A program made the position numbers and the translations under genes. Shown piece by piece: positions 2,740 to 12,041 of a stretch of 64,000 nucleotides of DNA; position 1 is the first letter of the stretch; every line of letters starts with the position of its first letter. Below the pieces are notes generated by a model that saw only the letters and a list, made by a program, of their open reading frames with translations, was not told the origin of the DNA and searched no databases. This stretch comes from Parachlamydiales bacterium (GTDB lineage: Bacteria > Chlamydiota > Chlamydiia > Chlamydiales > Rhabdochlamydiaceae). The stretch covers positions 928,001 through 992,000 of the forward strand of contig OY970065.1 of NCBI GenBank assembly GCA_963705295.1, read 5' to 3'.

Positions 2740-3807
2740 CTATCTCGAGACTGCAACGCCAATAGCCGAGTCGGCGCACCCATAATAGAGAAGCCATTTT
2801 CCCTTGAAATGGACAAGCCCTTGGATGAAGACGGTTCCGTCTTTATATTGTCCGCTCCGTTCATACGGTCTTTCGGGTTTAAAGATGTGTTGGTTGCTTC
2901 TGGAAACGACCCGAGTGGGATCTTTGGGATCTAGAACCAATTGTCCCGCAGCATAGGCTCCCGGGTTAATGTTAGGATCTCCATTTTTTTTAGAATTTTT
3001 TCCATTATAGAGAAATATGATTCCGTCCTTCGTCAGAACAGCTGGAGGGCCTGGCTCGACTAAATCACTATCAAACTTTCCTGGGCGTGGGCAAAGGATG
3101 GGATCTGGAAGCACCTCCCACGAGATCAAATCATCTGATTTTGCAACCTGGATGTTCCCTTCTCCCCAATACATCCAATATTTCCCTTGGATTTTCGTAG
3201 CAATCAAATGATCTCCTTGCCGACGACAAACAATCGAACCCGATTTCGAGTGGACCCGTTCACAAGGCTCAAATGCATATCCGTGCTTTTTCCAGGTGAT
3301 GAGATCATCTGAAGTCGCAATTCCAAGTACAGCGATGTCTCGATTCCACTGGGTATAGGTCATGACATAGCCCCCATCCTCCGTCTCCACGATACGAGGA
3401 TCCTCGCAACCACCTGGCCATTCTGAAAACTTTTGCCGATCATGATCGGGATACAAAACCGGTGTCGGTCTTCGGATAAAATGCAAACCATCTTCACTAA
3501 CAGCCAGGCCCAGCCTCGATGTGTGATGACCAATTCCTTCACCAAAATTATCCTCCGCTCGATAGATTAGATAAACCTTGCCACCCCGTACCACAGCCCC
3601 CGGATTAAAGGCATGATCGCTTTCCCACCGCACTTTATGCTGTTGAATCGGACAACAAAAAACCGACCCCGGATTGGGTTCCAAAATAGGATTCACTTTA
3701 TCTGCTCTCTCAAACCCCTTCACTTTCCATTCTGTAGAATCGGCAGAAGAACACCCGAAAACGAAGAAAGCTACGGATGCCATCAAGTGTTTTATTATCT
3801 TTCTCAT
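2740..3807 (-). CDS. glycoside hydrolase family 130 (beta-mannoside hydrolase/phosphorylase), probable lipoprotein
   Basis: FNPGAV, YRAED, SRLGLAVSEDGLHF, GCEDPRIV and LYYGCAD motifs; N-terminal lipobox-like FVFGC. Confidence 0.88.
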   Translation of the reverse strand: MRKIIKHLMASVAFFVFGCSSADSTEWKVKGFERADKVNPILEPNPGSVFCCPIQQHKVRWESDHAFNPGAVVRGGKVYLIYRAEDNFGEGIGHHTSRLGLAVSEDGLHFIRRPTPVLYPDHDRQKFSEWPGGCEDPRIVETEDGGYVMTYTQWNRDIAVLGIATSDDLITWKKHGYAFEPCERVHSKSGSIVCRRQGDHLIATKIQGKYWMYWGEGNIQVAKSDDLISWEVLPDPILCPRPGKFDSDLVEPGPPAVLTKDGIIFLYNGKNSKKNGDPNINPGAYAAGQLVLDPKDPTRVVSRSNQHIFKPERPYERSGQYKDGTVFIQGLVHFKGKWLLYYGCADSAIGVAVSR

Positions 3808-3896
3808 AAGTTCAATTTTTCCATATTAACGAAAATAAGTCGAACAGAAAGTTTTTAATTGAACTATTTTAAAATTCTTTTTTTTGTATCTATTCT

Positions 3897-10353: not shown

Positions 10354-11238
10354 ATGAAATCATTTTTAGTTGGTCTTTTCTTGTTACCATCTCTTTTTTC
10401 AGCGGAATATCAGTATGAGCTGGCTTTAGGTTCCATGTTCCGAGACGAAGCTCCATATCTGAAAGAATGGATCGAGTACCACCGAAGGGTGGGTGTTGAC
10501 CATTTTTGGCTGTACGATAATTGTAGTTGGGATGATTGGGAATCTGTTTTAAAACCGTATATTGAAGAGGGGATTGTCGAGGTGTTTGATTGGAAAGCTT
10601 CGGGAGAAGACAAAACAATTCGGAATGAAAAATTCCCGATGTCGCTTCAAATGGACGCTTTTTATAACTCTCTTATGATGAGTCGAGGGAAAGCAAAATG
10701 GTTTGGCTTTATCGATCTCGATGAGTTTATTTTGCCGATGCGCAATAAAACAGTACCGGAGTGCTTGAATGAGCATTATTCTGAAGCTGCGGCCGTTTTC
10801 GCATCATGGTTGAATTTCGGTACAAGCAAAGTTTTTCTCAAGGAAGGAGAATCGATCCTATTAAATCTAACGCGATGTGCCTTGAGAGGAAACATAAAAA
10901 ATGGAAATGGAAAGAGTCTCTTACGTCCGGATTTTGTCGATTTAGGGAAATTGTTTTGGCACCATTATGCCGCCTTAGTCGATGGGGCCGTTTATATGGA
11001 TGGGGATAAAAATATTCTCCATTTCAACGGGTCTCAAATGGACTGGAACTGGAAATTTCACGACAAATACATACGGATTAACCATTACTTTACCCGCGAT
11101 GAAAACTTTTTCTCAAAAAAACGGATTGCGGTATCCAAAAATGGTTCTTATTCCGTTGCACAACTGGAAGATCAAAATCAACAAATGAACTTAACGTCCG
11201 ACAAAAAGATGATAAACTTTCTTAGGAGCCAACCATGA
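10354..11238 (+). CDS. GT92/GT-A fold glycosyltransferase (paralogue of 8672-9517)
   Basis: MFRDEAPYLKEWIEYH, YDN, FIDLDEF, KSLLRP, INHY; leader MKSFLVGLFLLPSLFSA. Confidence 0.85.
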   Translation: MKSFLVGLFLLPSLFSAEYQYELALGSMFRDEAPYLKEWIEYHRRVGVDHFWLYDNCSWDDWESVLKPYIEEGIVEVFDWKASGEDKTIRNEKFPMSLQMDAFYNSLMMSRGKAKWFGFIDLDEFILPMRNKTVPECLNEHYSEAAAVFASWLNFGTSKVFLKEGESILLNLTRCALRGNIKNGNGKSLLRPDFVDLGKLFWHHYAALVDGAVYMDGDKNILHFNGSQMDWNWKFHDKYIRINHYFTRDENFFSKKRIAVSKNGSYSVAQLEDQNQQMNLTSDKKMINFLRSQP

Positions 11239-12041
11239 AAATACTTTTGTGCATATGCGTATTTCTTTCTTCCCTTTGCTATTCCATTCAGAAAAACAGC
11301 CTTCTACATCATGCCAAAATCATCCATTCGCAATATGGTGAAGAGGGGATTTTGGACGCCATTTTAGAGCGTCTGAATATCCATGACGGTTTTTTTGTTG
11401 AATTCGGCGGTTGGGATGCCGCGTATTTATCCAACACCCGATTTCTTGCAGAACGGGGCTGGGGAGGAGTTTTTATTGAGGCAGATGGAACACTCTTAGA
11501 GCAAGCACGAAAAAATTGTCAGAATTTTCCCAAAGTGCAATGTCTGAATGAATTTGTCACGTGGAACTCAGCCCGTTCGAAAGGAAAAACCTTCGATCAA
11601 ATCGCCGATCAATCATTCCCCAACCAAGAAATCGATGTTCTTTCGATCGATATCGATGGCCCAGATTACCTAATTCTAGAGAGCCTCAAACGGAAACCTA
11701 AAATCATCCTCATCGAAGGCGGATTCAGTTGGTCTCCCTCCTTAACTGCCCGGGTCCCTGATTCGATCGCTAAAACCGATAGCCTTAATCAATCCCTATC
11801 CACCATCTTTAAAATTGCGAAAAAGAAAGGATACATCCCCGTCTGCTTCACCATTAATACCTTCCTTGTCCGAGAAGATCTAGCCGCACCCTTCGCCGAT
11901 ATCAAAAATGATCCCGAAACCCTCTGGCTCGACTCTTGGTATTACTTCTCCGAGAAAGCCCCCTATCTCATCGAATTCACCCGCAATCTCCGTGCGACCC
12001 ACCCCTTGATCAAGCTCTACGACAATTTCCCCACACCGTGA
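11235..12041 (+). CDS. FkbM-like SAM-dependent methyltransferase with signal peptide
   Basis: HSQYGEEGI, FVEFGGWD, GWGGVFIEAD, IDVLSIDIDGPDY. ATGA coupling to the upstream gene. Confidence 0.78.
   Translation: MKILLCICVFLSSLCYSIQKNSLLHHAKIIHSQYGEEGILDAILERLNIHDGFFVEFGGWDAAYLSNTRFLAERGWGGVFIEADGTLLEQARKNCQNFPKVQCLNEFVTWNSARSKGKTFDQIADQSFPNQEIDVLSIDIDGPDYLILESLKRKPKIILIEGGFSWSPSLTARVPDSIAKTDSLNQSLSTIFKIAKKKGYIPVCFTINTFLVREDLAAPFADIKNDPETLWLDSWYYFSEKAPYLIEFTRNLRATHPLIKLYDNFPTP

Follow-up and report, generated by a model that had tools for sequence, protein, structure and literature searches.

Nine leader-bearing glycan enzymes in a Parachlamydiales genome as a putative cassette of an extracytoplasmic glycosylation system

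The window analysed here is a stretch of 64,000 nucleotides from the Parachlamydiales genome G000 (G000:C1:928001-992000), a single contig of 2.13 Mb with a completeness rating of 94.7%. Between positions 2740 and 12041 the window carries nine contiguous genes for glycan-active enzymes, each opening with a short hydrophobic leader, and the most fitting interpretation of the locus is a single cassette within a lineage-wide glycosylation system that would operate outside the cytoplasm. The chlamydial affiliation of the genome agrees with homologues named Chlamydiota, with GT6 genes of same-family genomes that match loci titled Rhabdochlamydiaceae, and with its TLC nucleotide-carrier loci. An ORF check places the nine open reading frames (ORFs) at the coordinates given by an earlier sequence-only reading, and the Pfam matches (GH130, GH95, Methyltransf_12 or MT12, GT6, GT11, GT92, Methyltransf_24 or MT24, GT92 and a weak FkbM) agree with the families it named. 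Probable starts were corrected to 6224, 6347, 7800, 10261 and 10354.

2740..3807, minus strand: GH130 with leader, closest to BT3780-type beta-1,2-mannosidase; probably accessory
3897..6224, minus strand: GH95 alpha-L-fucosidase-family hydrolase with leader; probably accessory; the open frame reaches 6272
6234..6262, minus strand: sigma-70-like site TCGACA-17-TATAAT, 11/12, just before the GH95 leader ATG; a consensus match only
6347..7072, plus strand: class I S-adenosylmethionine (SAM) methyltransferase with leader (MT12; Pfam Methyltransf_12)
7075..7800, minus strand: GT6 with leader; retains DAD, YFAGG and WHDESH; by prediction a metal-dependent alpha-1,3-GalNAc transferase
7818..8675, minus strand: GT11 with leader; motif I is QIRYYHED, not HxRRGD
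8672..9517, minus strand: GT92a with a 15-residue leader directly adjoining strand 1; DID at 95-97 and KEW invariant; GalS1 fold
9521..10261, minus strand: MT24 with leader; among solved folds the sugar O-methyltransferase MeT1 comes closest
10354..11238, plus strand: GT92b with leader, a paralogue of GT92a (43% identical)
11235..12041, plus strand: FkbM-like methyltransferase with leader; weak FkbM match

The genes lie in four blocks on alternating strands (- - / + / - - - - / + +): GH95-GH130 (-), MT12 (+), MT24-GT92a-GT11-GT6 (-) and GT92b-FkbM (+). The contiguity claimed for the nine genes holds, but because of these four blocks the set is not one operon. A Shine-Dalgarno-like motif precedes the leader ATG in MT12, GT6, MT24 and FkbM, and sigma-70-like sites number 17 against 20 in shuffled sequence. 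Repeats and terminators beyond chance were not found at the locus, except that the GT92 paralogue pair appears as an inverted repeat. Third-position GC content (GC3) gives no clear sign of foreign DNA (0.30-0.49 for the nine genes, 0.31-0.56 for the 5-95% range of the genome). Fifteen same-genus genomes carry phoH, and the gene downstream of it, readable in 14, is a glycan gene in 0/14; only this genome has the cassette there. What follows phoH varies (window 1426-2739; loci L243-L258 and L153), and in a genome of another family a GH130 likewise lies about 5 kb from phoH.

The leaders are about 20 residues long and end in A, S or G, often as L-x-A, right at the start of the catalytic domain. 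They were scored by a crude hydrophobicity rule (cut-off 2.3) together with conservation anchored on the catalytic-domain start. All nine leaders quoted in the sequence-only reading are present and eight of the nine genes pass the rule, GT92a reaching 2.14; genome-wide 241/1312 soluble ORFs pass, and the longest other runs of passing genes are of five. The conventional GT2/GT4/GT9 and sugar-nucleotide enzymes of the same genome are leaderless.

Leaders of this kind are found in hundreds of chlamydial and Babelota homologues, while free-living and phage homologues are without them. The GT6 leader is an addition, since the alignment with BoGT6a begins at residue 20 of the window GT6, which pairs with BoGT6a residue 2. 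Our GT6 survey covers the ORFs of 58 loci, with L063 regrouped as chlamydial and three loci giving no ORF. A leader stands ahead of strand 1 in 24/26 Chlamydiota-titled ORFs (the misses are one fragment and one short call), in 5/5 Babelota-titled ORFs and in 16/16 others that are untitled or ambiguously titled (Pseudomonadota or Verrucomicrobiae in some titles) and were grouped apart by judgement. None is seen in the 12 ORFs of 11 loci classed by judgement as free-living, several of which are fusions or cut, and the cyanophage P-SSM2 GT6 and its neighbours are leaderless as well. For GT92, 103/119 homologues carry a leader (most misses are short gene calls) with a median length of 21 amino acids (aa) and an n-region charge of +1.3; A/S/G occupies -1 in 90/103 and L occupies -3 in 76. 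Of 119 MT24 homologues examined, 96 could be anchored and 92 of these show a leader, A/G/S/C occupying -1 in 92/92; the FkbM-like family shows one in 33/33 best matches and 9/29 weaker ones. For MT12, a clear bacterial leader is seen by eye in only four close relatives among 150 representatives, of which 20 pass the rule. Pooled over foreign loci, leaders are present on 406/440 symbiont and 2/14 free-living glycan enzymes, the latter two both spurious.

A positive n-region, a short h-region and a small boundary residue are all present, as in substrates of Sec and signal peptidase I, with Leu rather than Ala mostly at -3. We infer that the leaders behave as cleaved Sec signal peptides rather than anchors: cleavage fits better because the leader varies, the small residue at the domain edge is fixed and there is no linker. 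The GH130 leader ends FVFGC and appears lipoprotein-like. Leaders on GH95 and GH130 are unsurprising because all nine chlamydial relatives read carry them, and exported enzymes are among the solved relatives. Leaders also occur on other usually cytoplasmic enzymes, seen in L260, L155:9773-10429, L154:7625-8533 and L015:6103-7005: Fe/Mn superoxide dismutase (Pfam) and, by eye, a phosphoglycerate mutase-like protein, a methyltransferase and a short-chain dehydrogenase/reductase. This suggests a wider export of metabolism.

The second line of evidence is donor supply. G000 holds five leader-bearing fucosyltransferase-family genes (two GT11, one GT23/NodZ-like and two GT10). Neither gmd nor fcl is found in this genome, the best gmd score being 69 bits against a cut-off of 415 and the tblastn matches reaching at most 31% identity, to other reductases; gmd is also missing at the GT4-GT4-manC site of G000, where relatives keep it. 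Fucose pyrophosphorylase (Fkp) and the SAM synthetase MetK are likewise not found in G000. Across Chlamydiota, gmd occurs in 35/110 genomes and GT11 in 15/111; only 4 of those 15 have gmd and 11 are without it, counts in which kin are not independent. The locus itself is neither a Wzx/Wzy nor an ABC O-antigen locus: as the sequence-only reading stated, it has no flippase, polymerase or donor-synthesis gene. Elsewhere in the genome (G000:C1:358-371 kb and 1527-1530 kb), however, lies a conventional route of its own, without leaders, with rml, CDP-glucose enzymes, GalE, UDP-glucose dehydrogenase (UGD), a ManC-like enzyme, a WbaP-like enzyme, a flippase, a ligase or polymerase, Wza and GT2/GT4/GT9. 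Also present in G000 are the type II secretion genes GspD, GspE and GspF, with three secretins in total, and five TLC nucleotide-carrier loci plus EamA/DMT carriers. In C. trachomatis the EamA protein CTL843 is reported to import SAM (PMC3104491).

The system extends well beyond this locus. GT92 relatives occur in 65/129 same-family genomes, and in 19 readable GT92 regions (L202 left out) GT11 directly adjoins in 6 and MT24 is close by in 7; GT25, FkbM and GT10 frequently join them. GT11 is present in 16/58 GT6 loci, GT6+GT11+GT92 recur in L026 and L032, and GT2, GT32 and sulfotransferases with leaders are found among the neighbours. What recurs is a core of GT92+GT11+methyltransferase, and GT6 frequently goes with GT11. 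G000 has at least five more leader-bearing glycan loci, and the phenomenon spans two phyla.

Further leader-bearing glycan genes, G000:C1: 996354-1000694 (L079), 1668195, 373997-375700, 379018, 805131-807801
Further leader-bearing glycan genes, G000:C1: 834561-841194, 731445, 1816910, 1820080

These comprise the second GT11, the GT23/NodZ-like gene, two GT10, GT25, GT32, GT2-PLOD, FkbM, MT24 and a hexapeptide acetyltransferase. Another seven neighbour families with leaders have no Pfam match. In some relatives even enzymes of donor synthesis bear leaders, namely Gmd, Fcl, ManC, UDP-glucose dehydrogenase and a GalE-like epimerase in L025, L156/L160, L042, L016:9667-10725, L119 and L120, and in L025 (2616-13079) UGD, Fcl, Gmd and GT6 bear leaders together. 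A Gmd leader is seen in 2/20 chlamydial regions fetched, plus L042, and genomes G282 and G280 each have one leaderless and one leader-bearing Gmd. The phylum of G280 (locus titled Dependentiae) has gmd in 39/81 genomes. In 30 Babelota loci, leaders stand on 12/23 Gmd, 11/19 Fcl and 5/12 ManC, one Fcl and one ManC being doubtful. Leader-bearing rows cluster in a Gmd tree of 29 rows (3 changes vs 5.6 shuffled); its support is too weak to establish a single origin of Gmd leaders. Gmd 'leaders' in L121 and L128 were rejected as upstream extensions.

Some further genes are recorded here as observations. A leader-bearing collagen-like Gly-X-Thr gene, frameshifted, lies two genes ahead of the leader-bearing GT2-PLOD (G000:C1:728960-730278, L083) and is a candidate acceptor; large or collagen-like proteins also flank GT92 in L204, L210 and L211. 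Four leader-bearing proteins at G000:C1:1131104-1135018 and one at 376351 are kinase-like by eye and have no Pfam match. Open frames of 3908 and 9278 aa at G000:C1 ~1.909-1.945 Mb, with weak reductase-domain matches, possibly encode a large polyketide/peptide synthase. In the window, AlbA/Schlafen-type ATPase-domain genes lie at 12454-14334 (Pfam; bordering the cluster) and 40771-42402 (by eye), and 34115-35212 (-) encodes a leader-bearing protein of 365 aa with no Pfam match that is GT-B-like by eye. Also by eye, 31955-34118 and 28251-30232 hold an RtcB-like ligase next to an archease-like fusion, and a nicotinate phosphoribosyltransferase and nicotinamidase pair.

What the individual enzymes make can be predicted to different degrees. 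The GT11 assignment comes from the profile PF01531 (E 3e-17; Atlas 0.97), and a sequence search against solved structures gave no match. The canonical GDP-fucose motif I of GT11 is HxRRGD; in QIRYYHED the Arg is kept and the remainder departs from it. Two free-living GT11 controls have RRGD; the symbiont GT11s read all lack it and, like the window GT11, retain the Arg. GT92a is modelled with a predicted local confidence (pLDDT) of 97 and has the GT92 profile, the DxD and the GalS1 fold, its best fold match being GalS1 (8d3t, E 4.5e-12, 14% identity) and others being giant-virus GT92s. Because 14% identity is too low, the UDP-Gal specificity of GalS1 cannot be transferred to it. The MT24 model (pLDDT 96) best matches MeT1 at 18-20% identity; kelch matches from a sequence search of solved structures were rejected as spurious. 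MeT1 is described as a sugar 1-O-methyltransferase (PMC9883506). The MT12 family is mostly leaderless elsewhere and fused to GT2 in 5/20 long relatives, and a sequence search of solved structures gave MT12 only a weak protein methyltransferase match. GH130 falls closest to NF058598 (BT3780-type; 459.6 bits, below the cut-off of 550) and matches 5a7v at E 2e-112, and GH95 is closest to solved GH95 enzymes.

The GT6 has the residues of an A-type synthase: DAD and WHDESH are kept, and YFAGG aligns with YYAGG of BoGT6a. PaGT6 of Parachlamydia acanthamoebae is reported to add GalNAc to H antigen in vitro, giving A antigen, with Mg or Mn required, and GalNAc transfer to Fuc-alpha1,2-Gal is described for both PaGT6 and BoGT6a (PMC3516806). 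The window GT6 is predicted to be a metal-dependent alpha-1,3-GalNAc transferase. A quick GT6 tree of 59 rows puts the leaderless rows on one side of a branch with support 90; the interleaving of its chlamydial with its Babelota rows has no starred support, so transfer between the phyla is not shown. A second GT6 beside topA (L013:1108-1734; G000:C1:373997) has lost DxD and WHDE and kept its leader; this degenerate form also occurs in L012 and L069-L072, and intact forms in other same-genus genomes. The order Gal-Fuc-GalNAc proposed by the sequence-only reading is plausible and goes no further: the A-synthase residues speak for it, whereas the donor motif of GT11 departs from the usual one, GT92 shares only 14% identity with GalS1, and Babelota have GT6 while GT11 was found in 0/81 genomes of the phylum of G280, in a search that gave no positive-control match at all. 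A blood-group mimic is plausible in the same sense.

Because signal-like leaders go together with missing GDP-fucose and SAM synthesis, the locus is best interpreted as acting on host donors outside the cytoplasm; of what had been proposed for it, this part stands, and a conserved nine-gene unit does not. The leaders would very probably direct Sec export and be cleaved by signal peptidase at L-x-A/S, after which the enzymes would stay in the periplasm or pass via type II secretion to the vacuole lumen. Periplasm or lumen appears a somewhat better candidate for the site of action than the host cytosol. The donors are quite probably host-derived; SAM would arrive by diffusion, and nucleoside diphosphate (NDP) sugars via a recruited host transporter, as UDP-glucose does in C. 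trachomatis. On balance, the acceptor would be a bacterial surface molecule, with exported proteins favoured over O-antigen. Babeliales are reported to have type II secretion and to be without most lipopolysaccharide (LPS) genes (PMC4776705), which makes O-antigen unlikely as a general acceptor. As a guess that we hold only tentatively, GT92 might add Gal, GT11 alpha-1,2-Fuc and GT6 a GalNAc cap. For the proposal as a whole, a cassette of nine leader-bearing enzymes whose transferases would use host NDP-sugars and SAM in the periplasm or vacuole lumen and build a methylated, probably fucosylated surface glycan, we see about an even chance.

Several observations weigh against this proposal. No acceptor was found. 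At a completeness of 94.7%, gene absence from G000 is not proven, and gmd in 10/12 same-family genomes implies that many relatives could make a GDP-deoxysugar. The leader rule also passes 336/783 unlabelled ORFs in symbiont loci (18/120 in free-living loci), and the end-motif test is weak in G000, where 11/23 proteins pass, one of them spuriously; shuffles average 18% and reach up to 52%, and internal helices give 68/358. Gene order and strand are not conserved among GT92 regions. In Babelota, a Met directly follows the leader in 14/28 leader-bearing Gmd/Fcl/ManC, so that a cytoplasmic start is possible there; this looks like a leader added ahead of an old start, and an internal start is allowed as well. 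NDP-sugars have masses of about 560-610 Da. These exceed the limit reported for the inclusion, which passes molecules below 520 Da (PMC3104491), and a host transporter would therefore be needed.

The main rival, which we regard as unlikely, is secretion of the enzymes as effectors into the host cytosol or host secretory compartments, where they would act on host glycans or proteins. It would better explain the export of Gmd and Fcl, as GDP-Man, GTP and NAD(P)(H), on which Gmd, Fcl, ManC and UGD depend, are found in the cytosol. The Sec/type II substrates CPAF, CT311 and CT795 are reported in the host cytosol (PMC6717882), signal-bearing ankyrin proteins of Babela are thought to enter the amoeba cytoplasm (PMC4378268), and among viral folds giant-virus GT92s come closest. 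Many varied cassettes that mix several families in shuffled order and include methyltransferases, however, resemble surface-glycan loci (L058, P-SSM2) rather than single protein-modifying effectors, and chain extension would require a primed acceptor held nearby.

It is improbable that periplasmic enzymes use donors made by the bacterium itself and passed out by an unrecognised exporter, the fucosyltransferase-family enzymes then using UDP-Gal, dTDP-Rha or GDP-Man. GalE, rml, the ManC-like enzyme, UGD and the EamA/DMT carriers of G000 would serve such a route, and the altered motif I of symbiont GT11s would agree with it. With no MetK found, SAM would nevertheless be host-derived, the GT23-like enzyme and one GT10 keep canonical-looking fucosyltransferase motifs, and export of Gmd and Fcl would be senseless if donors were made inside.

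More doubtful still is the conserved write/erase/methylate unit of the sequence-only reading, in which all nine genes form one pathway and an A-like antigen is written, methylated and trimmed by GH95 and GH130. The contiguity of the genes, the match of GT6 to A-synthases including the Parachlamydia enzyme active in vitro (PMC3516806) and the recurrence of GT11 and GT92 in GT6 loci agree with such a pathway. Yet GH95 occurs in 4/251 Chlamydiota genomes and this GH130 in 7/251, both together only in G000; beside a transferase, relatives of GH95 are found in 0/3 cases (one on a 1.9 kb locus) and those of GH130 in 1/6. An A/H antigen offers no substrate to a beta-1,2-mannosidase, and the genes form four transcription blocks. 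The conserved unit is thus not upheld. Both glycosidases probably scavenge host glycans as a separate function and were inserted at the same site; they appear accessory, and GH130 probably lies outside the transferase module.

That the leaders are uncleaved anchors or untranslated, with the enzymes working at the cytoplasmic side of the membrane as usual O-antigen transferases do, would settle how donors are reached and accord with internal Met codons after some leaders in relatives, but is highly improbable, as the uncharged run has a median of 17 residues with the strand 1 start included, in six of seven window transferases the domain does not start with a Met (the MT12 edge is not definable), and the missing GDP-fucose pathway would stay unexplained.

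More broadly, and with a confidence that stops short of even, environmental chlamydiae and Babelota, unrelated phyla of symbionts that are energy parasites, may have turned the periplasm or vacuole into a Golgi-like compartment by repeatedly adding Sec signals to cytoplasmic transferases (glycosyl-, methyl-, acetyl- and sulfo-) and also to enzymes that make GDP-fucose, making variable eukaryote-like coats (here possibly with an A-antigen-like cap) from host NDP-sugars and SAM. If true, a multi-enzyme pathway beyond the membrane would be a different way to make bacterial glycans, symbiont vacuoles would contain usable host NDP-sugars and SAM, and the coat of LPS-poor Babeliales could be accounted for. 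Glycan synthesis could also draw on the enzymes as a source of many small soluble transferases (fucosyl-, galactosyl- and GalNAc-) and O-methyltransferases.

Textbooks place bacterial NDP-sugar transferases in the cytoplasm and have glycans cross the membrane on lipid carriers; no bacterial route is known that builds a sugar coat outside the cytoplasm from host supplies. The P-SSM2 and Bacillota L058 loci cluster the same families, but are leaderless, contain donor synthesis and run mainly in one transcription direction; E. coli O86 wbn belongs with these cytoplasmic glycan loci. Golgi glycosylation (FUT1/2, ABO, GALS1) likewise sets NDP-sugar transferases and methyltransferases across a membrane from donor synthesis. 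Golgi enzymes sit on type II anchors and are served by dedicated donor transporters, whereas the enzymes of this locus look soluble and cleaved, and no bacterial donor exporter was found. PaGT6 and BoGT6a share the family and DxD clade of the window GT6, PaGT6 being metal-dependent, and the PaGT6 forward primer encodes LLFSHSLY, resembling the end of these leaders; unlike here, bacterial GT6 are treated as cytoplasmic O-antigen enzymes, a signal peptide being unmentioned in the portions of that source drawn on (PMC3516806). BoGT6a further differs from the window GT6 in starting at strand 1 and in having NxN.

The Sec/type II secretomes of Chlamydia and Dependentiae supply the export route (PMC6717882, PMC6561590, PMC4776705). 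Delivery to the lumen by this route is described in Chlamydia (PMC6717882), signal peptides are given for 44% of Chromulinavorax proteins, and TM6 genomes are reported to have type II secretion with two gspD copies (PMC6561590, PMC4776705). Unlike the present set, the proteins named in the consulted parts of these accounts are proteases, nucleases and ankyrins, not glycosylation enzymes (PMC6717882, PMC6561590, PMC4776705); the Babela and Chromulinavorax papers list many signal peptides, and the main-text sections consulted name no such enzymes (PMC4378268, PMC6561590). Searches of the open-access literature turned up no account of signal-bearing glycosylation clusters in these lineages.

The nearest precedent is the lumenal glycogen synthesis of C. 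trachomatis, where GlgA and GlgB act and host SLC35D2 brings UDP-glucose (PMC4829429). As proposed for this locus, a bacterial NDP-sugar enzyme works there in the vacuole lumen on a host donor delivered by a host transporter. The C. trachomatis enzymes differ in that they are described as reaching the lumen by type III secretion without a cleavable signal and as making one storage homopolymer (PMC4829429), whereas the cassette combines Sec-type leaders with many transferase families and SAM methyltransferases, and its relatives tag donor-synthesis enzymes with leaders as well.

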